Assembly (NCBI GenBank): GCA_910585615.1 | Contig: CAJUFO010000003.1 | Span: forward strand, 18,380 to 82,379 | Direction of reading: 5' to 3' | From: an uncultured Acetatifactor sp. | GTDB lineage: Bacteria; Bacillota; Clostridia; Lachnospirales; Lachnospiraceae | DNA: 64,000 nt | Part shown: one piece after another, positions 1 to 9,377 of the stretch | Layout of the letters: each line of letters opens with the position of its first letter | Numbering within the stretch: the first letter of the stretch is position 1 | Made by a program: the position numbers and the translations under genes | The notes under the pieces: generated by a model | The model's database searches: none | Told to the model about the DNA's origin: nothing | What the model saw: the letters and a program-made list of their open reading frames with translations, nothing else

Positions 1-2
1 AG

Positions 3-506
3 TTCACCGAGGCCATATACCATCTGACCAAGAGCATGGACGGCATGCGGCCCGTGGTCTCCAATGACGGCTGGGAGCACACGCTGACGGATATCCTGAC
101 GCTCCATGACTATGAGGAGGCAGGCAGCGTATTGAAGGCGCGGTATACGGAGCAAAAGGACGAGCTCCTGACGGCGGCCATATGCCACAACGGCTTCAAG
201 ACGGCTTTGGCGGACGGCTACGGATACTGTGGGCAGCCCGTCATCATCAGCGAGTACGGCGGCATCGCTTTCGACAACAATGGCGACGGATGGGGCTACG
301 GCAATCTGGTGAAGTCCAAGGAGGATTTCATCCGCAGATTCGACGATGTCACCACTGCCATCAAGGAACTGCCCTATGTATGCGGCTACTGCTACACCCA
401 GGTGACGGACGTGCAGCAGGAGGTGAACGGCCTGATGGACGAGGAGCGCAATTTCAAGGTAGAACCGGGAGTCATCCGAGAGATCAACGAGAGGAAGGTT
501 CTCTAA
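3..506 (+). CDS. Glycoside hydrolase family 2, C-terminal part (5' end lies outside the window)
   Basis: Frame is open from position 3. Motifs RPVVSNDGWEH, PVIISEYGG (nucleophile region) and GYCYTQVTDVQQEVNGL fit the GH2 TIM barrel. Confidence 0.85.
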   Translation, partial: FTEAIYHLTKSMDGMRPVVSNDGWEHTLTDILTLHDYEEAGSVLKARYTEQKDELLTAAICHNGFKTALADGYGYCGQPVIISEYGGIAFDNNGDGWGYGNLVKSKEDFIRRFDDVTTAIKELPYVCGYCYTQVTDVQQEVNGLMDEERNFKVEPGVIREINERKVL

Positions 507-630
507 GAGTGTATGGTTTTGTTTCCTGGCTTCCGGGCAAAAAGCATTTGAGCCATATTTTTCTCTTGCCGCTTTTGTGGTATATTTAGTGAAAATTCTT
601 GCATAATGCGGATTGCGGGAGGGTATGCGG

Positions 631-2205
631 ATGATCGATACGGGCGGACAGCCCTCAAAGCTGAGAAAGGAAGAGTGGCTGAGGGAAAACCCCATCTATC
701 AGAATACGGTTGCCTGCGAAAAGAGGTTCAATCCGGACTTTTCCCTGTCCCAGCTGCATTTCCATGAATTCCTGGAAGTCAGCATCATCGCGGAGGGCAG
801 CGGCATCCATCGCATCTGGAACAGGGTCCTTACATGCAGGAAGGGCGACGTCTATGTGCTGAACGCGGGCGTGCCCCACGAGTATTTCGTGAAGGACGGG
901 GAGGAAAAGCTGGTCATCCGGAACATCCTGTTCGATGTGGAGGACTGGTTCACAGGGGATCTGGCCTTGCCGGACAGCCCCCGGTTCTGCTACGGGATTT
1001 TCGACGAGGACATCCTGTCCGCCTATGTGTCCCTGAAGGGGCGCTCCATGGAGACGGTGGAGAGGATCTATCAGGCCATCGAAAAGGAGACTGTGGAAAA
1101 GGAACCTGAGTGGATGGAAGCCGTGAAGTCCCAGCTCGTCCTGCTTTTGATTGCCATAAGGCGGCATTTGGAGAAATCCTCCACGGATTCTTCTGTCACG
1201 CCCAGGGACAGGATGGTGGTGTCCACGGCCATGCGCCTGGTGAGGGAACAGTATTTCGATAAGGAACTGACGCTGGAGAGCATAGCAGATTCCCTGTACC
1301 TGAGCAAGTCTTATCTGAGCAAGCTGTTCTGCCGTGTCACGGGGGAGCATTTTTCCGAGTATCTCCGCAGCGTCCGGCTGCAGCAGGCCTGTAGGCTGCT
1401 GCGGGACACCCAGTTGACCAATGAGCAGATTGTATACGGATGCGGCTTAAAGGACGTGCCCTCCTTCTACCAGCTGTTCAAGGCGAAGCTATCCATGACG
1501 CCCAACAGATATCGGACGGAAACGAGAAAAACCATACAAAATAAAGAAGGAAAAGGAGAACCGAACATGAGCATTTTGACAGACATTTCAGAGAACCTGC
1601 AGCGGGGCAAGGCGAAGGTGGTAAAGGAGCTGGTACAGCAGGCAGTGGATGAGGGCATTCCTGTAGAGCAGATCCTAAGCGAAGGATTGCTGGACGGCAT
1701 GGGCATCATCGGCGAGAAGTTCAAGAACAACGAGGTGTATGTGCCGGAGGTGCTTGTGGCCGCCAGGGCCATGAACATGGGGGCGCAGGTGCTCAAGCCC
1801 CTGATGGCGGAGGCAGGCGTGAAGGCCACAGGAAAGGTCTGCATCGGCACCGTACAGGGCGACCTCCACGACATCGGCAAGAACCTGGTGAAGATGATGA
1901 TGGAGGGCAAGGGGCTGGAGGTAGTGGACCTGGGTACGGACGTGGCTCCGGAGACCTATGTGCAGACTGCCATCGAGCAGGGCTGCCAGGTGATTTGCTG
2001 CTCCGCGCTGCTGACCACCACCATGGGCGTCATGGAGGAAGTGGTGAAGAAGGCGGAGGAAGCCGGTATCCGGGACAAGGTGAAGATTATGGTCGGCGGA
2101 GCGCCGGTGACGGAGGAGTACTGCCGGAAAATCGGTGCGGACAAGTATACCCCGGATGCGGCCAGCGCGGCGGATGCCGCCGTGGAGCTCTGCGCCGCCT
2201 GCTGA
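631..2205 (+). CDS. AraC-family regulator (cupin + HTH) fused in frame to a corrinoid (B12-binding) methyltransferase protein
   Basis: N-terminal LHFHEFLEVSII cupin and C-terminal AraC HTH (LESIADSLYLSKSYLSKLF...LQQACRLL...F..TPNRYR), then a B12-binding domain with DLHDIGKNLV, SALLTTT and MVGG. RBS GGGAGGG precedes ATG 631. Confidence 0.85.
   Translation: MIDTGGQPSKLRKEEWLRENPIYQNTVACEKRFNPDFSLSQLHFHEFLEVSIIAEGSGIHRIWNRVLTCRKGDVYVLNAGVPHEYFVKDGEEKLVIRNILFDVEDWFTGDLALPDSPRFCYGIFDEDILSAYVSLKGRSMETVERIYQAIEKETVEKEPEWMEAVKSQLVLLLIAIRRHLEKSSTDSSVTPRDRMVVSTAMRLVREQYFDKELTLESIADSLYLSKSYLSKLFCRVTGEHFSEYLRSVRLQQACRLLRDTQLTNEQIVYGCGLKDVPSFYQLFKAKLSMTPNRYRTETRKTIQNKEGKGEPNMSILTDISENLQRGKAKVVKELVQQAVDEGIPVEQILSEGLLDGMGIIGEKFKNNEVYVPEVLVAARAMNMGAQVLKPLMAEAGVKATGKVCIGTVQGDLHDIGKNLVKMMMEGKGLEVVDLGTDVAPETYVQTAIEQGCQVICCSALLTTTMGVMEEVVKKAEEAGIRDKVKIMVGGAPVTEEYCRKIGADKYTPDAASAADAAVELCAAC
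1567..2205 (+). CDS. Stand-alone corrinoid protein (MtaC/MttC-like) from an internal start in the same frame
   Basis: AAAGGAG RBS 8 nt upstream of ATG 1567. MSILTDISENLQRGK... looks like a typical N-terminus of a complete ~210 aa corrinoid protein. Confidence 0.7.
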   Translation: MSILTDISENLQRGKAKVVKELVQQAVDEGIPVEQILSEGLLDGMGIIGEKFKNNEVYVPEVLVAARAMNMGAQVLKPLMAEAGVKATGKVCIGTVQGDLHDIGKNLVKMMMEGKGLEVVDLGTDVAPETYVQTAIEQGCQVICCSALLTTTMGVMEEVVKKAEEAGIRDKVKIMVGGAPVTEEYCRKIGADKYTPDAASAADAAVELCAAC

Positions 2206-2305
2206 GAAAATCTGTTGCACATAGCCTGCACCCGAAAGTGGGTTTCGATTGTAGATTTTCAATCGTAGATTTTGAGTGCGAGGGAGCGGGCATGGGGGAT
2301 AATGT

Positions 2306-3340
2306 ATGAAGAGAGATATGCGAAAATGGCTGGAGGAGCTTCAGGCTGCCCCAGTGAAAAAAGCCATGCCGGTTCTGTCCTTTCCGGCGGTGCAGCTCCT
2401 GGGAATCAGCGTGAAAGAGCTGATCTCCGACAGTGACAGACAGGCGGAGGGCATGAGGCTGGTGGCGCAGCGCACGGATGCCGCGGCGGCAGTAAGCCTG
2501 ATGGACCTCTCCGTGGAGGCTGAGTGCTTCGGCTCCGCCATCCGGGTGTCGGACAGGGAGGTCCCCACCGTCGTCGGCCGAATCGTGGAGGACGAGGAGG
2601 GAGCGAAAGCCCTGGCGGTTCCCAGGGTGGGGAGCGCCAGGAGCGGGCTGTATGTGGAGGCCATCAGGAAGGCCGTGGGGCTGATTGAAGACAGACCGGT
2701 CTTCGCTGGCGCTATTGGGCCGTTCTCCCTGGCAGCCAGGCTGCTGGACGTCACGGAGATCATGATGGAGTGCTATGACGAGCCGGACATGGTGCACATA
2801 GTGATGGAGAAGGCCACGTCCTTCCTGACAGAGTACTGTAAGGCTTATAAGGAGGCAGGGGCAAACGGCATCGTCCTGGCGGAGCCGGTGACAGGCCTGC
2901 TGTCCCCTGCCCTTGCGGAGGAGTTTTCCGCGCCCTATGTGAAGCGGCTGGTGGATGCCGTGCAGGATGACTCCTTTGTCATCATCTACCATAACTGTGG
3001 GAACAATACCATCCAGATGATAGATTCCATCCTGGACACGGGGGCCGCGGCCTACCATTTCGGAAATGCCATAGACATGGCCCAGATGCTGGCCCGCATC
3101 CCGGCCGGGACAGTGGCCATGGGAAATGTGGATCCCGCAGGAGAGTTCTGCCACGGCACGCCGGAATCCATCCGCAGGGCCACGCTGCAGGTGATGGAAA
3201 ACTGCTGCCCTTATCCGAATTTCGTCATTTCCTCCGGCTGCGATATCCCGCCCATGTCGAAATGGGAGAATATCGATGCTTTCTTCGGGGCCGTGGAGGA
3301 ATACTATGAACGCCGAGGCGCACAGGGGGTATCGAGATGA
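2306..3340 (+). CDS. Uroporphyrinogen decarboxylase family methyltransferase (MtaA/CmuA-like MT2)
   Basis: DLSVEAECFG, GPFSLA, Zn-ligand IYHNCG, MGNVDP and ISSGCDIPP motifs. Confidence 0.85.
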   Translation: MKRDMRKWLEELQAAPVKKAMPVLSFPAVQLLGISVKELISDSDRQAEGMRLVAQRTDAAAAVSLMDLSVEAECFGSAIRVSDREVPTVVGRIVEDEEGAKALAVPRVGSARSGLYVEAIRKAVGLIEDRPVFAGAIGPFSLAARLLDVTEIMMECYDEPDMVHIVMEKATSFLTEYCKAYKEAGANGIVLAEPVTGLLSPALAEEFSAPYVKRLVDAVQDDSFVIIYHNCGNNTIQMIDSILDTGAAAYHFGNAIDMAQMLARIPAGTVAMGNVDPAGEFCHGTPESIRRATLQVMENCCPYPNFVISSGCDIPPMSKWENIDAFFGAVEEYYERRGAQGVSR

Positions 3341-4455
3341 CAAACAGAGAACGAGCGATGAACATCCTGCATTACCAGCCGGCAGACCGGTTCCCGGCAG
3401 TCCATTTCGGCTACTGGAGCGAGCTGCTGGAGGAGTGGGCCGGACAGGGGAAGATTTCAAGAGAGCTGGCGGAGAGCGTGGCCGACGGGAACGAAGCCGA
3501 CAAGGAGCTGGACCGCATCATTGGCTGGGACTTCGACTGGTGCCGGACAGTGGGCCCCAGGAACGGCCTCTTCCCCTCCTTTGAGTACAGGATGCTGGAG
3601 ACCCTGCCGGACGGCACCCAGCGGGTCCAGAACGAATTGGGCCTGATAGAGCGGGTGAAGCCCGGAGTGGCCTCCATCCCCTCGGAGGACGATTATGTCC
3701 TGAAGGACAGAGAAGCCTTCGAGACCCTCTATAAGCCTAAGATGCTCTATGCGCCGGAGCGGATAGACCTGGAGTATTATAAGCATTTCAACGAGACCAG
3801 GCCTATGGACGTCCCGGTGGGGCTGGCCCTGGGCAGCGTGCTGGGGGATATCCGTAACATGGTCTCCGTGGTGGGGATGAGCTATCTGATTTATGACGAG
3901 GATGAAGAGCTGTTCGCGGACATCGTGGACACCTATGCGGAAATGCAGTACCAGTGCGTGAAAACGGTTCTGGAGACCGGCGCGAAGTTCGACTTTGCCC
4001 ATTACTGGGAGGACATCTGCTTCAAGAACGGCCCTCTGCTTTCGCCCGATATCTTTGAGGAGCTCTGCGCGAAGCACTATAAGAAGAGGAACGATCTGTG
4101 CCGTCAGTACGGAATCGATATCATTTCGCTGGATTGTGACGGGGTGACGGAAAAGCTCCTGCCCACATGGTTCGAAAACGGGGTGAATACCATGTTCCCT
4201 ATCGAGGTAGGCGTGTGGGGGGATCAGTTCGAGGCCGCCCGGGGCAGGTTCGGCAAGGGTATGCTGGGCGTGGGAGGCATGGACAAGACCGCGTTCCGCA
4301 AGGACAAGGCGGCTGTGGACGCGGAGATTGAGCGCATGAAGCGGCTGGCCTCCCTGGGCGGCTTCCTTCCGTGTCCCGACCACAGGATCATGCCCGGCTC
4401 CAGTTTCGAGCTGGTGCAGTACTATGCGGAGGAAATCAAGAGGATAAAGGTATGA
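3337..4455 (+). CDS. UroD-family corrinoid methyltransferase (putative substrate-specific MT1)
   Basis: Overlaps the upstream stop (ATGA). Motifs HYWEDICFKNGPLLSP, SLDCDG, FPIEV, GVGGMDK and GGFLPCPDHRI. Confidence 0.8.
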   Translation: MTNRERAMNILHYQPADRFPAVHFGYWSELLEEWAGQGKISRELAESVADGNEADKELDRIIGWDFDWCRTVGPRNGLFPSFEYRMLETLPDGTQRVQNELGLIERVKPGVASIPSEDDYVLKDREAFETLYKPKMLYAPERIDLEYYKHFNETRPMDVPVGLALGSVLGDIRNMVSVVGMSYLIYDEDEELFADIVDTYAEMQYQCVKTVLETGAKFDFAHYWEDICFKNGPLLSPDIFEELCAKHYKKRNDLCRQYGIDIISLDCDGVTEKLLPTWFENGVNTMFPIEVGVWGDQFEAARGRFGKGMLGVGGMDKTAFRKDKAAVDAEIERMKRLASLGGFLPCPDHRIMPGSSFELVQYYAEEIKRIKV

Positions 4456-4493
4456 CCTGGGAGCCTGCCCAATGGGATCCCTAAGGAGGCTGA

Positions 4494-5070
4494 ATGGTGA
4501 AAAAAATTGCAGATACCGAAATTTTAGAGAATTTGGTGAAGAAGGCGCTGGAGCTGGGGGCGGATCATGCTGCAGCGATCCCTGTATCCAAAATCGAGAC
4601 GGATGCCGGCTTCCGGAGCCTGTGCGAGCAGAACACCTGCGGGAGATACGGCAAATGCTGGACCTGTCCACCGGACGTGGGCGACATCGATACGCTGATG
4701 AAGACCATACGCACATTCGACTACGCGGTCGTCTACCAGACCATAGGGATGCTGGAGGACAGCTATGACATAGAAGGCATGGAGGAGGCCGCGAAGAAGC
4801 ACAACCTCCTGATCCGGAGGATGGCGGAAGCGGTGAATGAGGATTCCTTTGTGCGCATCCTGCACCTGGGGGCCGGGGGATGCAATATCTGCCCGGTCTG
4901 CGCCAGGGTGGAGAACCATCCATCCCTGCCGATTTCCGGACATGGCCATATCCTCGTTGGAGGCACATGGAATCAATGTGTCCAGGCTTGCTGCGGAATG
5001 CGGGATGAAGTATATTAATGGGCAGAATACCGTTACGTATTTTGGGGCTGTGCTTTGCTCTCCCATGTAG
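4494..5070 (+). pseudogene. DUF2284 metal-binding protein, frameshifted by a 4-bp duplication
   Basis: Frame 1 carries CEQNTCGRYGKCWTCPP...GAGGCNICPVC. The C-terminus HPCRFPD..SSLEAHGINV...KYINGQNTVTYFGAVL is in another frame. CCAT is duplicated at 4916-4923. Confidence 0.8.
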
Positions 5071-5090
5071 CCTGAATGGCTGAAAAATAA

Positions 5091-5237
5091 AATACCCCGC
5101 TGCAAGCAACGGGGTATCAAGCTTGCAACGCTGCAGAGCAGAAAGTGTCCTTCGGACACTTTGGTATTTGACCCTCGCGGCATTCGCCAACTGGCCGTGC
5201 AAGCACGGCCGCTTGGCTCATTGCCCGCGGGAATAAA
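5091..5237. repeat. Multi-hairpin intergenic element (REP/PATE-like)
   Basis: Stems ATACCCCG/CGGGGTAT (5092-5117), AAAGTGTCC/GGACACTTT (5142-5162) and GGCCGTGC/GCACGGCC (5193-5210). Confidence 0.6.
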
Positions 5238-5259
5238 GAAAAGCATTCATGAGGTATTT

Positions 5260-6840
5260 ATGGCGAAAGTCAAGATAAATGGAGTTGTCTATGATGCGGG
5301 GCTGGGGGTGTTGCTGGGGGATTTATTGACCGGGCAGCGCTCCGGGGAGAACCCTGCTTTTGGCCGTCAGGGGTCTGACGGGAATTCTGGGGGCTCTTTG
5401 ATGGGGTTACCCCATGATTCTTTGATGGGGTTACCCTGCGGAGGCCATGGGCGCTGCGGGAAGTGCAGGGTGCGTGCCCATGGAGCATTGAGCCCCCTTT
5501 CGGATGCGGAGAAGCGGCTTTTGTCCCCGGAGGATATAGCCAGGGGCATCCGCCTGGCCTGCTGCACTGCCGTGGAGGGGGACTGCAGCGTTGAGCTGGA
5601 GCAGCGGGGCAGCGGACAGATCCGGACTGCGGGGGATATGCCGGATATCCGGCTGAAGCCCTCCTTCCAGACCTATGGCTTTGTGCTGGATATCGGTACG
5701 ACCACGCTGGCGGCACGGCTTTATGACGCCGACGGAAGGGTGCTGGCTGAGGGGAGCGGGCTGAACCCACAGGCAGTCTGGGGGGCCGACGTGATTTCCC
5801 GCATCGAAGCGGATCTGCGTGGCGAGGGGCACAAGCTCGCACAGGCAATCCGCGGGGCAGTGGACGGCCTGGTGAGAGAGCTCTCCGGAAAGGCGGGGAT
5901 TGCGCCGGAGGACATTGACGGGATGGCGGTGACAGGAAATACGGTGATGCTCCATCTGCTCACCGGCACCTCCACAGAGCCCCTGTCCCACGCGCCCTTT
6001 GCGGCCGGGCGGCTGTTTGGGGAGACAGTGACGGCGAAAGGCCTGGGGCTTGCCGCCCTGTGCCCGGAAACCAATGTCTATCTGGCTCCCTGTGCGGCTG
6101 CGTTCGTGGGCGCGGATCTTATCACGGCGGTTCTGGCGGGGGCTCTGTGTGATACGCCGGGCACGCGGCTGCTGGCGGACATCGGCACCAACGGCGAGAT
6201 GGCCCTATGGCATGAAGGGGCGCTGTATTGCTGTTCCACCGCTGCCGGCCCTGCTTTTGAGGGCGCGGGAATCTCCATGGGAATGGGGGGGAGCGCAGGC
6301 GCGGTGGACAGGGTGGCCGTCAAGAACGGGAAGCTGAGCGCCCATGTAATCGGAGAGGGCACCGCCCTGGGGATTTGCGGAAGCGGCGTGGTGGACGCGG
6401 TGGCATGCCTGCTGGAGACAGGCCGGATGGACGATACGGGATACCTGGAAGAGGAGAGCGCAGTGGTCTGCGAACAGGTGGTCTTCACACAGAATGACGT
6501 AAGGATGGTACAGCTTGCCAAAAGCGCTATCCATGCCGGCATCAGGACCTTGTTGCACACGGCGGGGCTGGACTGCGCCCGGGTGGAGGCGCTGCTGATT
6601 GCGGGAGGCTTCGGCAGCTATCTGGATGTAGGGAATGCGGCGAAAATCGGCCTGTTCCCGGAGGAGTTGCTGCCCTGCATCCGGGTGGTGGGCAATGCCG
6701 CCCTGAGCGGGGCGTCCATGTTGCTGTTGAATACGGATTACAGATTTGTCTGCGAAAGCTATGCGAAAGGCGCAAAGCTTGTGGAGCTGTCCTCCAACTC
6801 GTATTTCGCGGACGAATATATGGAGAGGATGCTGTTCTGA
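5260..6840 (+). CDS. Reductive activator of corrinoid proteins (RACo/RamA-like; 2Fe-2S + ASKHA ATPase)
   Basis: CGGHGRCGKC...RLAC 2Fe-2S motif, DIGTTT, DIGTNGE, TAAGPAFEGA, GICGSG and AGGFGSY. GAGGT RBS before ATG 5260. Confidence 0.9.
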   Translation: MAKVKINGVVYDAGLGVLLGDLLTGQRSGENPAFGRQGSDGNSGGSLMGLPHDSLMGLPCGGHGRCGKCRVRAHGALSPLSDAEKRLLSPEDIARGIRLACCTAVEGDCSVELEQRGSGQIRTAGDMPDIRLKPSFQTYGFVLDIGTTTLAARLYDADGRVLAEGSGLNPQAVWGADVISRIEADLRGEGHKLAQAIRGAVDGLVRELSGKAGIAPEDIDGMAVTGNTVMLHLLTGTSTEPLSHAPFAAGRLFGETVTAKGLGLAALCPETNVYLAPCAAAFVGADLITAVLAGALCDTPGTRLLADIGTNGEMALWHEGALYCCSTAAGPAFEGAGISMGMGGSAGAVDRVAVKNGKLSAHVIGEGTALGICGSGVVDAVACLLETGRMDDTGYLEEESAVVCEQVVFTQNDVRMVQLAKSAIHAGIRTLLHTAGLDCARVEALLIAGGFGSYLDVGNAAKIGLFPEELLPCIRVVGNAALSGASMLLLNTDYRFVCESYAKGAKLVELSSNSYFADEYMERMLF

Positions 6841-6941
6841 GAGAGGCATGAAATAGAGAAGGAGGTTTGAAGCAAAAAATGACGAACCCCTGGCAAGGCC
6901 ACGTATGCCAGGGGTTCGAATCTAATATCAGAATCTGGAAT

Positions 6942-8474
6942 CTATTTTCCAAGCGCCGTCTTCTGAGCCACCTCCGTCTTTTTCTCATAGCATGCAAAGG
7001 CATTCTCCACCAGCTTCCTGTCCGGCTTCGGCGTGAACAGGCTCACCACAGGCACGATCACAAGTCCCGCCAGCATGGCGATGGCGCCGCAGTTGATAGG
7101 GGACTGCATGATAGCCGGGAAGGAGCTCCTGAAGAAGATATTGGCCACCATCAGCACAGAGCTGAAGAGGAAGCATACCCAGCAGGAAGCTTTCGTCACC
7201 CGTTTGGAGTATAGCGAATACAGGAATGGCGCCAGGAAGGAACCGGCCAGCGCCCCCCAGGACACGCCCATGAGCTGTGCGATGAAGGTCACGGAGCTCT
7301 TGTACTGAATCAGGGCCAGTATGGACGAGATGGCGATGAACACCACTATCAGTATCCGCATGGAGAGCACCTGCTTCCTGTCGTCCATCTTCCGGAAACA
7401 GACCTCCTTCAGGAAATCGATGGTCAGGGTGGAGCTGGAGGCCATGACCAAAGAAGACAGCGTTGACATCGAAGCGGACAGCACCAGAATCACCACCAGG
7501 GCGATCAGCAGGGGCGACAGGCCCGAGAGCATGGTGGGGATGATGGAGTCGAATCCGTTTGCCGCCACGTCGATCTGGTCTGAGAACAGCCTGCCGAAGC
7601 CCCCCAGGAAATAGCAGCCGCCTGCCACCACCAGCGCGAACAGGGTGGAGATGATCGTCCCCTTCTTGATGGACTCCTCGTTCTTGATGGCGTAGAACTT
7701 CTGCACCATCTGGGGCAGCCCCCAGGTGCCCAGGGAGGTGAGGATCACCACGAACAGGAGGTTCAGGGGATCCGGGCCGAAGAAGGACGCGAAGGTGCCA
7801 GGAGCCGTGGAGACTGTCTCGTCCGTAATCCTGGCCAGGCCGTCCAGAGCCGCCATGAAGCCGCCCTTGCTCTTCAGCACGGCAGCGATGATCGTACTGA
7901 TGCCGAACAGCATGATGATTCCCTGGATGAAGTCATTGATGGCCGTGGCCATGTACCCTCCGGCGATGACATAGACAGCCGTCAGCACAGCCATCAGGAT
8001 GATGCAGACGGAATAATCGATGTTGAACGCCATGCCGAACAGCCGGGAGAGGCCGTTGTACAGGGACGCTGTGTAGGGGATCAGGAAGATGAAGATGATG
8101 ACGGACGCGCCGATCTTCAGGGGGCGGCTGCCGAAGCGCTCCCCGAAGAACTGAGGCATGGTGGCAGAGTCCAGGTGCTGGGTCATGATGCGGGTCCTGC
8201 GGCCCAGCACCACCCAGGCCAGCAGCGAGCCGATGACGGCGTTCCCGATGCCCGCCCATGTGGCGGCGATGCCGTACTTCCAGCCGAACTGTCCGGCGTA
8301 GCCTACGAAGACCACGGCGGAGAAATAGGAAGTGCCGTAGGCGAAGGCTGTCAGCCAGGGTCCTACGGAGCGCCCTCCCAGGACGAATCCGTTGACGTCC
8401 GTGGCGTGCTTGCGGCAGTAGAGGCCGATGGCGATCAGCACCGCGAAATAGAGTATCAGTAAGATAAGTTTCAT
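6942..8474 (-). CDS. Sodium:solute symporter (SSS family)
   Basis: About 13 hydrophobic segments; F.LGGR.VGPW.TAF, FGERFGS, GGY.A....DFIQG and SASMSTLSS motifs. Start set at ATG 8474 after the RBS. Confidence 0.9.
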   Translation of the reverse strand: MKLILLILYFAVLIAIGLYCRKHATDVNGFVLGGRSVGPWLTAFAYGTSYFSAVVFVGYAGQFGWKYGIAATWAGIGNAVIGSLLAWVVLGRRTRIMTQHLDSATMPQFFGERFGSRPLKIGASVIIFIFLIPYTASLYNGLSRLFGMAFNIDYSVCIILMAVLTAVYVIAGGYMATAINDFIQGIIMLFGISTIIAAVLKSKGGFMAALDGLARITDETVSTAPGTFASFFGPDPLNLLFVVILTSLGTWGLPQMVQKFYAIKNEESIKKGTIISTLFALVVAGGCYFLGGFGRLFSDQIDVAANGFDSIIPTMLSGLSPLLIALVVILVLSASMSTLSSLVMASSSTLTIDFLKEVCFRKMDDRKQVLSMRILIVVFIAISSILALIQYKSSVTFIAQLMGVSWGALAGSFLAPFLYSLYSKRVTKASCWVCFLFSSVLMVANIFFRSSFPAIMQSPINCGAIAMLAGLVIVPVVSLFTPKPDRKLVENAFACYEKKTEVAQKTALGK

Positions 8475-8587
8475 AGTTTCATGCCCTCTCCTTTGTCGGT
8501 TTAAAGTGCTAAAGCGAGTATAGCACAGTTTGTCAAAATATGCAAACATAATTTTTCTTATAAATATTTGGAAAAATTTTAACCAGG

Positions 8588-8616
8588 TTGACAGTTTTTC
8601 TTATCAATAATAAAAT
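8588..8616 (+). promoter_or_regulatory. Sigma-70/A promoter for the two-component operon
   Basis: TTGACA-17 nt-TAAAAT. Confidence 0.6.
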
Positions 8617-8705
8617 GGAGATACAAAAAGGATACATTTCTGTTTTTTCATAGAAACTGAGATATCACATCATAAAGTCACACCATACAGAGATGAGGGG
8701 ATATT

Positions 8706-9377
8706 ATGCTGAAGATACTGATAGCGGAGGACGAAGAGCCCATCGCCAACCTGATTAAAATGAACCTGCGCAGGGCGGGATATTCCTGTGTCTGGGCGCC
8801 GGACGGGGAGAAGGCCGCCGACCTGATGGACACCGAGAAGTTCGACCTGGTGCTGCTGGACGTGATGCTGCCGGGCATCAACGGCTATGAGCTCATGGAG
8901 TACGCCAGGAGCCTGGAGCTGCCCGTCATCTTCCTGACGGCCCTGGGAAGCACGGAGAACAAGGTGAAAGGGCTGAAGATGGGAGCCGACGACTACCTGA
9001 CCAAGCCCTTTGAAATCGTGGAGCTCCTGGCCAGGGTGGAGGCCGTGCTGCGCCGGTACCACAAGACGGAGACGCTCCTCACCGTATTCGACGTGGTGAT
9101 CGACACGGCCTCCCGGTCGGTGACCCAGAACGGGGAGCCCGTGATGCTGACCATGAAGGAGTTCGAGCTTTTGCTGCTGCTGGCCAGGAACCGCAACATA
9201 GCCCTGTACAGGGAGACCATCTACGAGAATATCTGGGGCGGCGAGTACATGGGTCAGAGCAGGACAGTGGATCTCCATATCCAGCGGCTGAAAAAGAAGC
9301 TGAACTGGGACAATGAGATTGCGGCTGTCTACAAGGTGGGATACCGGCTGGAGGGAGAGGAAAAAATTACGAAGTAG
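8706..9377 (+). CDS. OmpR-family response regulator
   Basis: LIAEDE, DLVLLDVMLPG, GADDYLTKPF, winged helix LTMKEFELL...RTVDLHIQRL. Confidence 0.95.
   Translation: MLKILIAEDEEPIANLIKMNLRRAGYSCVWAPDGEKAADLMDTEKFDLVLLDVMLPGINGYELMEYARSLELPVIFLTALGSTENKVKGLKMGADDYLTKPFEIVELLARVEAVLRRYHKTETLLTVFDVVIDTASRSVTQNGEPVMLTMKEFELLLLLARNRNIALYRETIYENIWGGEYMGQSRTVDLHIQRLKKKLNWDNEIAAVYKVGYRLEGEEKITK

Follow-up and report, generated by a model that had tools for sequence, protein, structure and literature searches.

A cupin-AraC regulator fused to a corrinoid protein in a methyltransferase operon of gut Clostridia, with a probable second product from a conserved internal start

The 64-kb window, i.e. the whole stretch of DNA that was analysed, contains on its plus strand an ORF that runs without a stop codon from TTG613/ATG631 to TGA2203-2205 and encodes 524 aa when counted from ATG631. 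Its product begins with a cupin-AraC regulator (aa 1-296), which an A-rich linker of 16 aa connects to a complete corrinoid protein (CP, aa 313-524), and the ORF is followed by genes for putative methyltransferases (MTs) and a corrinoid activase. The features at the locus are as follows.

507-630 (+): upstream non-coding region with conserved blocks, presumed promoter/operator; contigs of RNA run X33 start in bin 524-747
617-623 (+): Shine-Dalgarno (SD) sequence of the long form, GGGAGGG, read from the sequence, with a 7-nt spacer to ATG631
631-2205 (+): fused ORF, long form: cupin-AraC regulator, linker and corrinoid protein; kept as a single ORF across 53 loci and no fewer than 119 protein clusters
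745-942 (+): cupin/AraC-type ligand-binding domain for sensing and dimerisation, aa 39-104 (PF02311 E 3e-9; PF07883 E 7e-5)
1258-1518 (+): C-terminal DNA-binding region with two HTH motifs, aa 210-296 (PF12833 E 7e-18 over aa 218-296; PF00165 E 1.5e-11)
1519-1566 (+): A-rich linker, aa 297-312, about 60 % A and variable among homologues, doubling as predicted translation-initiation region of the short form
1552-1558 (+): internal SD sequence AAAGGAG, encoding K308-G309-E310, 8 nt before the in-frame ATG1567
1567-2205 (+): short-form ORF, predicted free corrinoid protein of 212 aa from M313, co-linear with stand-alone corrinoid proteins
1579-1797 (+): B12-binding_2 four-helix cap, aa 317-389 (PF02607 E 2e-17)
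1834-2151 (+): B12-binding Rossmann domain, aa 402-507, with DxHxxG (nt 1861-1878), SxL and GG (PF02310 E 1e-24)
2306-3340 (+): MtaA/CmuA-family methyltransferase of the URO-D fold, putative methyl-corrinoid:acceptor MT2 (PF01208 E 9e-54)
3337-4455 (+): divergent URO-D-like protein, putative substrate:corrinoid MT1 (weak PF01208 match, E 8e-7)
4494-5070 (+): frameshifted gene for a DUF2284 metal-binding protein (PF10050 matches split over two frames)
5260-6840 (+): RACo/AcsV-type reductive activator of corrinoid proteins (PF14574, PF17651, Fer2)

Translation and Pfam analysis bear out the sequence-only reading of this locus, which had described a single ORF joining an AraC regulator to a complete corrinoid protein. 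The MIDxGGQP N-terminus is the common start of the homologues in an alignment of 28 proteins (alignment A1), in which C69 and C120 of the cupin-AraC half are invariant as well. As in AraC/XylS regulators, the first half consists of a cupin-type N-terminal domain (PF02311, 37 bits against a cut-off of 21.1), whose fold resembles the N-terminal domains of ToxT and Rns with the full-length proteins as Foldseek matches, and an HTH region that scores 65 bits with PF12833 (cut-off 33.6) and 44.5 bits with PF00165 (cut-off 26.6). The linker stands out by its A content from a surrounding window of 55 % GC. AF2 modelled two confident modules with pLDDT values below 50 at aa 304-313, and the linker is accordingly predicted to be a flexible tether. 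The model (pTM 0.54) provided no confident inter-domain geometry or contact, so we do not propose an allosteric path, and Foldseek found no single chain matching both halves of the fusion.

In the corrinoid half, the motifs D411-x-H413-x-x-G416, S458-x-L460 and G489-G490 are evident from the sequence itself and invariant across the 28 homologues, and the cap and Rossmann domains typical of corrinoid proteins score above their cut-offs with 63.7 bits (PF02607) and 86.6 bits (PF02310). It is a relative of the methyltransferase-cognate subfamilies but a member of no named one, as it misses the cut-offs of TIGR02370 (181 vs 215 bits) and MtgC_2 (204 vs 370 bits); its best PDB relatives are 1y80, MttC (7xcn), MtmC (3ezx) and 4jgi. 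The start at 1567 aligns with the N-terminus (MSILT...) of stand-alone corrinoid proteins in loci L052 and L054-L080. Corrinoid halves are 78-100 % identical among the homologues and change as slowly as free catalytic CPs. A tblastn search of the entire 64 kb with the corrinoid half as query returned the fused copy only, and the earlier statement that it is the only corrinoid protein of the cluster thus holds for the window. Locus L052 carries the same MT genes (99 % identity) together with a free CP gene that matches the one in the window exactly over its 3' half. Because nearly identical methyltransferases are served by this free CP, the corrinoid half of the fusion is likely to be the catalytic carrier.

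The genes downstream of the fusion are those of an MT1/MT2/activase system, and the same partners are found at homologous loci. The putative MT2 gene, which adjoins the fusion in most loci, reaches 130 bits with TIGR01463, under the cut-off, and matches MtaA (PDB 4ay7) with E 3e-15. No sequence match to the URO-D-like putative MT1 was found in NCBIfam or PDB; its gene occurs alongside that of the fusion, which it immediately precedes in about 14 loci. The activator scores 301 bits with NF040756, again under the cut-off. The frameshift in the DUF2284 gene is a 4-nt duplication (CCATCCAT, 4916-4923), and the additional 4 nt are absent from the contigs of runs X3, X26 and X30. Upstream of the fusion, region 507-630 shares the blocks TGGTTTTGTTTCC, GGCAAAnGGCAATATTACCATATT and TGAAAAT with loci L005 and L006 (alignment A2, three relatives only). 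Footprinting of this upstream region identified no operator, the blocks being kept in these three relatives only, and a consensus promoter scan of 400-7000 found no site. The spacer between CP and MT2 contains a GTAGATTTT direct repeat that is not conserved beyond L052, and Rfam detected neither a cobalamin riboswitch nor any other RNA family over 1-9000.

RNA contigs of run X33 (1288-2453) and run X30 (300-1816) cross the linker, i.e. one transcript spans it, with X33 covering 733-4778 only. This RNA-seq evidence consists of assembled contigs that are a poor measure of abundance, carry no 5' ends and are also compatible with an internal promoter. Four runs labelled metatranscriptomic (X3, X5, X8 and X11) were excluded from the RNA evidence, as their flat depth and contigs of 80-180 kb are DNA-like.

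The search for AraC plus B12-binding architectures in related genomes revealed that the fusion is conserved. The same fusion occurs in at least 119 protein clusters of 56-99 % identity, and the best-matching 120 clusters display the AraC plus B12 architecture throughout, contig-end fragments aside. Short cluster members of 213, 296, 311 and 323 aa were considered as cases of a stop codon in the linker and dismissed, being either fragments at contig ends or genes called from the internal start on short contigs. Among GTDB species representatives of gut Clostridia, of which the best 80 of at least 578 loci were analysed, 53 loci carry the fusion with AraC halves that are 34-98 % identical. Wherever an AraC regulator of this type lies directly upstream of a CP gene in these loci, the two are fused (53/53, no stop). 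The linker extends 9-25 aa after the HTH and varies in sequence and in length, and every one of its 14 different lengths is in frame. The arrangement AraC-stop-CP was not found for the cupin-AraC subfamily among the loci examined, and the unfused members of the AraC subfamily that we examined have no CP gene downstream. These comparisons indicate that the fusion is old and selected, and the alternative of a recently lost stop codon, which had been raised from the sequence, is refuted by the number of clusters and loci as well as the in-frame linker lengths; none of 54 fused genes has a linker stop. The family is widespread among uncultured Clostridia from the guts of mice and ruminants, and the cultured relative Acetatifactor aquisgranensis possesses an ortholog (WP_330640274.1, in a cluster with an 88 %-identical representative).

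Equally conserved is the internal translation start. The sequence-only reading was right about an A-rich linker with AAAGGAG 8 nt before an in-frame ATG1567. M313 is invariant in alignment A1, and 47 of 54 fused genes possess the internal ATG; 46 of these 47 have an SD sequence of at least 4 nt placed 5-11 nt upstream (at least 5 nt in 42 genes). The glycine codon within the SD sequence is GGA in 34/34 cases compared to 28 % elsewhere (p = 2e-19, no phylogenetic correction), and the SD motif persists in codon phase 2 as well, i.e. in another reading frame. The 30 nt before the internal ATG contain 57 % A and 27 % GC, whereas the averages over the fused genes are 28 % and 49 %. Across homologues, the minimum folding energy (MFE) at the internal start is -2.2 kcal/mol versus -9.7 kcal/mol for the genes; the corresponding values for the gene in the window (-30 to +20 of ATG1567) are -1.5 kcal/mol and a gene mean of -12.0 kcal/mol. 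Outside this position, 81 kb of homologous ORFs contain only 10 combinations of a strong SD sequence with ATG (4 in frame), as opposed to about 42 of 54 genes at the internal start, and judged by these counts the placement is more than chance. The ORF hence contains what is looked for in dual-isoform genes, an in-frame start with its own ribosome-binding site that is conserved among homologues. The earlier proposal of two products, a free CP and a long form, is strongly supported by this comparative evidence, and the gene probably also makes a free carrier from the internal start.

A further line of comparison is provided by loci that harbour a second CP gene. There, 5 of 6 fused genes lack the internal ATG, in contrast to 2 of 48 in loci with no such gene (Fisher p = 4e-5, no phylogenetic correction). 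The ATG-less genes have lost the SD sequence and the A-rich, unstructured signature too, and the losses fall at no fewer than 4 separate places of the AraC tree, as far as the poorly resolved NJ trees tell. Exceptions exist in both directions: in L021 and L048 the ATG is missing although the surrounding +/-10 kb contain no second CP, and L078 kept its ATG though a free CP is nearby. ATG-less fused copies retain DxHxxG, SxL and GG, have the conserved residue at 89-93 % of the positions with a conservation of 95 % or more and show omega values of approximately 0.07-0.16, of which few were usable since dS is saturated and thereby undefined for most distant pairs. By these measures, the fused B12 domain is under purifying selection even where a free copy has become the carrier. 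As the internal start is mostly lost where a free CP is present while the fused B12 domain is kept, both forms, the short carrier and the long regulator-carrier, appear functional. Subfunctionalisation after duplication into a sensor copy and a carrier copy would thereby be directly readable from genomes.

With reasonable though far from complete confidence, we regard the fusion, part of a corrinoid methyltransferase operon, as a conserved gene with two products: a free carrier, and a long form that most likely regulates the operon via its own corrinoid module. In the proposed operon, ordered fusion, MT2, MT1, DUF2284 and RACo, initiation at ATG631 would yield a 58-kDa cupin-AraC factor tethered to the corrinoid module via the flexible linker, while initiation at the internal SD sequence and ATG1567 of the same mRNA would yield a free corrinoid protein of approximately 22 kDa. 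The latter is probably the major product because the internal site is the stronger and unstructured one, and it would shuttle methyl groups between MT1 and MT2 with RACo as reactivating enzyme. The long form most likely acts as operon regulator whose own module reports holo versus apo state and possibly also reads methyl-Co(III) versus Co(I)/Co(II), and binding of a small-molecule effector by the cupin domain would result in an AND-type control with a logic comparable to EutR. We infer that both forms build up in the cell and that the long form is a corrinoid- and DNA-binding protein whose activity depends on the cofactor state. By analogy to CarH and EutR, the long form may couple the occupancy, methylation or redox state of the corrinoid to transcription, a coupling that is supported by the retention of the fused B12 domain under purifying selection beside a free copy. 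A more specific version, which we put forward only tentatively, is that the long form reads substrate supply and pathway flux through the B12 states methyl-Co(III)/Co(I)/Co(II) and not through a ligand pocket, its module, the same polypeptide as the methyl carrier, being methylated by MT1 in the presence of substrate, demethylated by MT2 and re-reduced by RACo. If true, a shared reading frame would ensure that the sensor's specificity for cofactor and partners stays in step with the enzyme system.

Several other explanations have to be weighed against such a regulatory dual-product gene. That the ORF is a sequencing or assembly error or a recent accident between two ordinary genes might be suspected from the 4-nt frameshift in the DUF2284 gene of the same window. 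This explanation is refuted, since the same uninterrupted ORF recurs in dozens of independent assemblies and runs with homologues down to 34 % AraC identity and the short cluster members reflect contig ends instead of stops. An unlikely scenario is that regulator and carrier work independently of each other, the missing stop merely letting upstream ribosomes run on and the attached B12 module having no regulatory role. The cell's need for a free CP, to which the internal start testifies, and an AF2 model without confident inter-domain contact would fit this scenario, and so would the unfused regulators in the same kind of operon, namely PocR-AraC proteins in L052, L054 and L055 and MtaR in E. 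limosum (PMC13602510). A linker stop, however, is a single mutation away (AAA, GAA or AAG to TAA or TAG), yet it occurs in 0 of 54 genes with 14 linker lengths, and in several lineages the fused B12 domain stays intact beside a free CP gene, with its motifs kept and omega at about 0.1.

The remaining two explanations concern whether and how the short form arises. The fusion could be a single bifunctional product of 58 kDa, regulator and catalytic carrier at once, with the internal SD sequence and ATG as relic of a former gene boundary; the fused CP being the only one in the window and a CP half that evolves as slowly as free catalytic CPs would agree with it. We deem this very unlikely, for a relic should decay, yet the SD sequence is fixed at a synonymous site in 34/34 cases and kept in a different frame, the A-rich unstructured region is maintained, and decay of SD and ATG is seen in 5/6 loci with a free CP gene. 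Carrier proteins are moreover needed in amounts far greater than typical AraC regulators, which also counts against a single product. Highly improbable in our view is a short form translated from a separate mRNA, with a promoter in the 3' end of the AraC part or in the linker and an upstream promoter giving a rare long transcript, so that two products would arise under transcriptional control. A -10-like element might be present in the A/T-rich linker, additional promoters are conceivable in the roughly 14 loci with the fusion in mid-operon behind MT1, and contigs of run X26 break at 1431-1557. Against this stand the lack of promoter-like sites in 400-7000, the X30 and X33 contigs that cross the linker with similar depth on either side, and the nature of the conserved elements, SD and ATG, as translational signals.

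A regulator bearing the pathway's carrier would be relevant beyond this operon. Corrinoid methyltransferase systems demethylate dietary methylated compounds, and the fusion offers a system for asking how anaerobes match the expression of corrinoid-hungry methyltransferases to cofactor supply or methyl flux, with the A. aquisgranensis ortholog in a cultured relative making experiments feasible. As far as comparative data can tell, it would also be a clean example of a gene selected for two products. Annotation of such genes as 'helix-turn-helix domain-containing protein' or 'cobalamin-dependent protein' lets clusters of this kind seem to have no corrinoid protein. No description of an AraC-corrinoid fusion was found in the literature searched, which left most subscription journals outside its scope, so that this absence is not proof.

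Among known systems, CheA-L/CheA-S, IF2 alpha/beta and ClpB are comparable to what is predicted for the fusion: two in-frame isoforms, the shorter of which starts at an internal SD sequence and ATG and corresponds to the C-terminal part of the longer one. They differ in that here the short form would be a complete, independently known type of carrier and the long form a regulator carrying it, as judged from comparative evidence. The C-terminal 212 aa share length, two-domain layout, motifs and MT1/MT2/RACo context with MtgC, MttC, MtmC, MtaC, the Moorella protein 1y80 and the Desulfitobacterium protein 4jgi. To our knowledge, methyltransferase-cognate corrinoid proteins occur free or fused to methyltransferase domains as in CmuA and MetH, never to a transcription factor. 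The operon layout is reminiscent of MtaR from Eubacterium limosum (PMC13602510), a PocR-AraC activator whose gene opens the mta operon for methanol methyltransferase, as in both cases an AraC-family regulator heads a corrinoid methyltransferase operon directly before the corrinoid-protein genes. In L054 and L055, a PocR-AraC gene is likewise followed by a stop codon and then the CP, and L052 has a divergent PocR-AraC version. MtaR differs, however, by its PocR sensor in place of a cupin and by being a separate protein without a B12 domain.

A likeness in architecture is found in CarH/LitR, where one polypeptide likewise contains a DNA-binding domain and the two-part B12 module of four-helix bundle and Rossmann domain and where, as known for CarH, transcription is controlled by the cofactor state. 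Similarity of the B12 half to these proteins is weak but significant, with E 1.5e-4 to 5c8a at sequence level and fold matches to 5c8d, 5c8f and 3whp. CarH/LitR nevertheless use a MerR-type HTH, for which the fusion has no Pfam match, while here an AraC/XylS regulator with cupin is placed N-terminal to the B12 module via a disordered linker. The B12 module is furthermore methyltransferase-cognate (best matches MtgC, MttC and 1y80) and encoded in a methyltransferase operon, aa 313-400 contain no tryptophan, and the W-x9-E-H AdoCbl pocket of CarH is absent from the cap. CarH is not known to have an internal-start short form, and light sensing by the fusion in gut anaerobes is implausible. In terms of function, EutR offers an analogy: this AraC-family activator of the eut operon requires both ethanolamine and AdoCbl and thus integrates substrate and cofactor of a B12-dependent pathway, which is the logic proposed here, but it is not known to have a canonical B12-binding domain and is unfused to a pathway component. 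B12-domain transcription factors are known mainly as light sensors (CarH/LitR, AerR), and we know of no AraC regulator of a B12 pathway, be it EutR, PocR or MtaR, that bears a B12 domain. On sequence grounds, the fusion is an uncharacterised type of B12-linked regulator and a real variant of the B12-domain regulators, and it would represent a third design, an AraC regulator bearing the pathway's own corrinoid carrier.

The fused gene joins two complete halves in one ORF across an A-rich linker that holds an internal Shine-Dalgarno (SD) site ahead of ATG1567. A tblastn search of the whole 64 kb returned no second copy of the corrinoid half, so that every element of the sequence-only reading's description, including that of the only corrinoid protein (CP), held.

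617-623, + strand: SD of ATG631, GGGAGGG, spacer 7 nt
631-2205, + strand: fused ORF, ATG631 to TGA2205, 524 aa, no stop between
aa 41-104, + strand: AraC-type cupin (Pfam)
aa 210-296, + strand: AraC/XylS double HTH (Pfam)
1519-1566, + strand: linker, about 60 % A (window 55 % GC)
1552-1558, + strand: internal SD, AAAGGAG, 8 nt ahead of in-frame ATG1567
aa 317-389, + strand: B12-binding_2 cap (Pfam)
aa 402-507, + strand: B12-binding Rossmann domain (Pfam)

The corrinoid motifs are D411-x-H413-x-x-G416, S458-x-L460 and G489-G490, and a TTG at 613, upstream of ATG631, is a possible alternative start. An AF2 model computed from a 28-sequence alignment (pLDDT 81, pTM 0.54) consists of two confident modules with a low-confidence joint at aa 304-313. 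Foldseek matched each half separately, the corrinoid half to MttC, MtmC and 4jgi and the AraC half to ToxT and Rns, with no structure chain covering both. C69 and C120 (835-837 and 988-990) of the cupin sensor half are invariant in 28 homologues, although identity over the rest of this half is only ~40 %, and may form a thiol-based site or one that contacts a metal or ligand; the classical cupin histidines (H43, H45) are not conserved in this set.

A recently lost stop codon, put forward earlier as the alternative to a functional fusion, is refuted by the spread of the architecture. Among 5.8 billion proteins, AraC and B12 domains occur together in all of the top 120 clusters (56-99 % identity) except for one 323-aa fragment from a 1.5-kb contig; short cluster members were rejected as stop-codon variants, being contig-end fragments or internal-start gene calls. 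With one genome per GTDB species, both halves share one frame in 53 of the best 80 of at least 578 homologous loci, distributed over Lachnospiraceae, Oscillospiraceae, Acutalibacteraceae, Pumilibacteraceae and unclassified Clostridia from mouse and ruminant guts, at 34-98 % identity to the window in the AraC half and 62-100 % in the corrinoid half. The closest locus (L002, 99 % identity) belongs to an uncultured Acetatifactor sp. MAG of a mouse gut catalogue, and the window sequence itself was found in many mouse gut metagenomes. From the HTH end to the corrinoid methionine there are 14 different lengths of 9-25 aa with little sequence conservation, and none of the 54 fused genes (the window plus 53 loci) carries a stop or frameshift in the linker. 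A single substitution would create a stop in this A-rich sequence, so that the lack of one in all 54 speaks for selection to keep the long product.

A search of 1.84 billion representative proteins with the AraC half only also revealed unfused proteins of this cupin-AraC subfamily (~296-312 aa, 37-50 % identical), and we found no AraC-stop-CP order for the subfamily. In their contexts (L081-L085; protein matches P0121, P0122, P0126 and P0127), a URO-D-type methyltransferase gene adjoins the regulator in two of four (P0121, P0126), by which the subfamily appears tied to corrinoid methyltransferase systems more generally, and a corrinoid gene lies directly downstream in none of the four. A regulator-stop-CP order is known for another regulator type, the PocR-AraC of loci L054 and L055, and corresponds to the arrangement of MtaR in the mta operon of Eubacterium limosum (PMC13602510). 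This comparative record indicates an old, selected fusion.

Nucleotide-level comparison strongly supports selection on the internal start as well. In the alignment of 28 fused proteins only the last six linker codons, [K/R]-G-[E/D]-x-x-M, are conserved, with M313 invariant. Across the fused genes the internal ATG is present in 47 of 54, preceded at 6-11 nt (typically 8) by an SD match of at least 4 nt in 46 and at least 5 nt in 42 of these 47, mostly AAGGAG. Where codon -4 specifies glycine, all 34 distinct sequences use GGA, a codon that accounts for 28 % of the glycines in the rest of these genes (binomial p = 1.7e-19, phylogeny not accounted for). Four genes carry GGAG in another codon phase and consequently different peptides (e.g. 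PED, KEE, QKE, EKE), which indicates that an RNA motif is conserved and not a peptide. The 30 nt ahead of the ATG contain 57 % A and 27 % GC (genes: 28 % and 49 %), and the region -30 to +20 folds at -2.2 kcal/mol versus -9.7 for windows elsewhere in these genes, of which 2.3 % are as weak; the window's own gene gives -1.5 versus -12.0 kcal/mol. Comparable SD and ATG pairs occur only 10 times elsewhere (4 in frame) in 81 kb of these ORFs. In L052 and L054-L080 the stand-alone CPs begin exactly at this position (MSILT...), with the same SD.

Loss of the internal ATG goes with the presence of a second corrinoid gene (Fisher p = 3.8e-5, phylogeny not accounted for). Six loci combine a fused gene with a separate CP gene (L018, L030, L036, L041, L051, L078). 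In L018, L030, L041 and L051 this gene lies directly downstream of the fusion with its own AAGGAG and ATG, and all four fused copies have lost both the internal ATG (ACG, AAT, GGA, GAG) and the SD, as has the fused copy of L036; L078 retains its ATG. Without a second CP in the locus, merely 2/48 fused genes lack the ATG (L021, L048). The seven ATG-less genes are neither A-rich nor unstructured here (39 % A; folding -8.66 vs -8.68 kcal/mol). They occupy at least four separate places in a neighbor-joining tree of AraC halves, and their free CP partners cluster with different fused lineages, both in poorly resolved trees, which makes the losses look repeated.

ATG-less copies nevertheless keep DxHxxG, SxL and GG, apart from the partly altered L051, and retain 89-93 % of those positions at which the other copies show at least 95 % conservation. 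Their omega is ~0.07-0.16 where dS is measurable versus 0.03-0.07 for window-type genes, and their identity to the window's CP half is 62-72 %, that of free or dual-purpose copies mostly 72-100 % (66 % in the distant free L066). The four tandem loci can be described as a sensor copy beside a carrier copy, the free ones being 78-82 % identical to the window's corrinoid half. In the fused L051 copy SxL and GG read SAPL and ARGAP, changes that may mark the onset of decay. ATG loss with B12 retention is what one would expect if a two-function gene had undergone subfunctionalisation: the internal start would serve free-carrier supply, while the fused B12 module would have a second role, kept after a paralogue becomes the carrier. 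For the two products proposed from the sequence, a free CP and a long form, the comparative case is strong, resting on the conserved ATG and SD, the invariant GGA and the losses beside free CPs.

The corrinoid half itself is probably a catalytic carrier. Its rate of evolution is as low as that of free carriers, and the nearest relatives with solved structures are Moorella 1y80, MttC, MtmC and 4jgi, a Desulfitobacterium protein of the O-demethylase type. In ~14 loci the position of the fused gene, immediately after an MT1-like (putative substrate:corrinoid) and before a putative MT2 (methyl-corrinoid:acceptor) methyltransferase gene, is the one where a carrier gene is usually found. Locus L052 (8576-12406) shares its methyltransferase genes with the window at 99 % identity, but pairs them with a free CP that matches the window's exactly in its 3' half and has diverged in its 5' half; the regulator there is a 451-aa PocR-AraC, transcribed divergently. 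This suggests that the regulatory module was exchanged by recombination, with a breakpoint within the carrier gene.

Downstream of the fusion the window encodes the following genes:

2306-3340, + strand: MtaA/CmuA-type methyltransferase (putative MT2 gene)
3337-4455, + strand: divergent URO-D-like methyltransferase (MT1-like), no family or PDB match
4494-5070, + strand: DUF2284 metal-binding protein gene, split across two frames
5260-6840, + strand: RACo/AcsV-type activase (reductive activator)

Metatranscriptome contigs cross the linker in runs X30 (300-1816) and X33 (1288-2453). X33 contigs cover 733-4778, running from the fusion through both methyltransferase genes into DUF2284 with both flanks uncovered, which fits a single operon from fusion to DUF2284. 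Neither a promoter scan of 400-7000 nor these contigs gave any sign of an internal promoter, which assembled contigs cannot exclude. The RACo gene and the upstream gene lie outside X33 coverage, and RACo, which follows an intergenic element with several hairpins (5086-5240), may have a transcript of its own. This element reaches ~60x the contig depth of its flanks, with many alternative junctions, in every metagenome and metatranscriptome examined, and looks like a short dispersed, MITE/REP-like repeat; it occurs once in the window and once, at 78 %, in L006, and has no Rfam match. The DUF2284 gene is broken by a 4-nt tandem duplication (CCATCCAT, 4916-4923). Contigs of runs X3, X26 and X30 lack the 4 nt, which would restore a single ORF; the window's copy is thus either misassembled or a strain-level pseudogene. 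The spacer between fusion and MT2 contains a direct repeat, GTAGATTTT ... GTAGATTTT (2246-2275), within hairpin-like sequence, identical in L052 and absent from other relatives, whose spacers measure only 31-72 nt.

We propose that a single mRNA with two start sites would yield a long form, the regulator tethered to a corrinoid module, and a short form acting as methyl carrier between MT1 and MT2 and held active by RACo. The upstream initiation region folds at -5.9 kcal/mol versus -1.5 for the internal one, which leads us to expect more of the short form than of the long one. Most likely, the long form regulates the operon by the state of its own corrinoid module. In the simplest version it would distinguish holo from apo, following the logic of EutR, and adjust the output of a system with high cofactor demand to the supply of usable corrinoid; in a bolder version the tethered module would be a target of MT1, MT2 and RACo just like the free one, and its methylation or redox state would thereby report substrate and flux. 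Both versions are inferred, and the putative sensing mechanism is directly testable. The cultured relative Acetatifactor aquisgranensis has an ortholog, which belongs to a cluster represented by a sequence with 88 % identity to the window's protein.

In the full-text literature searched, which contained few subscription journals, we found no account of an AraC-corrinoid fusion, and databases list these proteins under generic names ("helix-turn-helix domain-containing protein", "cobalamin-dependent protein"). By domain criteria the protein is a bona fide AraC/XylS member and a relative of methyltransferase-cognate corrinoid proteins, below their curated cut-offs. As in CarH/LitR, a DNA-binding domain is linked to a B12 module, yet the MerR domain and the W-x9-E-H motif of those proteins are both missing, there being no Trp in the cap. 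The functional analogues EutR and MtaR/PocR lack a B12 domain. Precedents for the coding trick are the internal-start isoforms of CheA, IF2 and ClpB. The feature is real, conserved and uncharacterised, a variant of the B12-domain regulators combined with selected dual-product coding.
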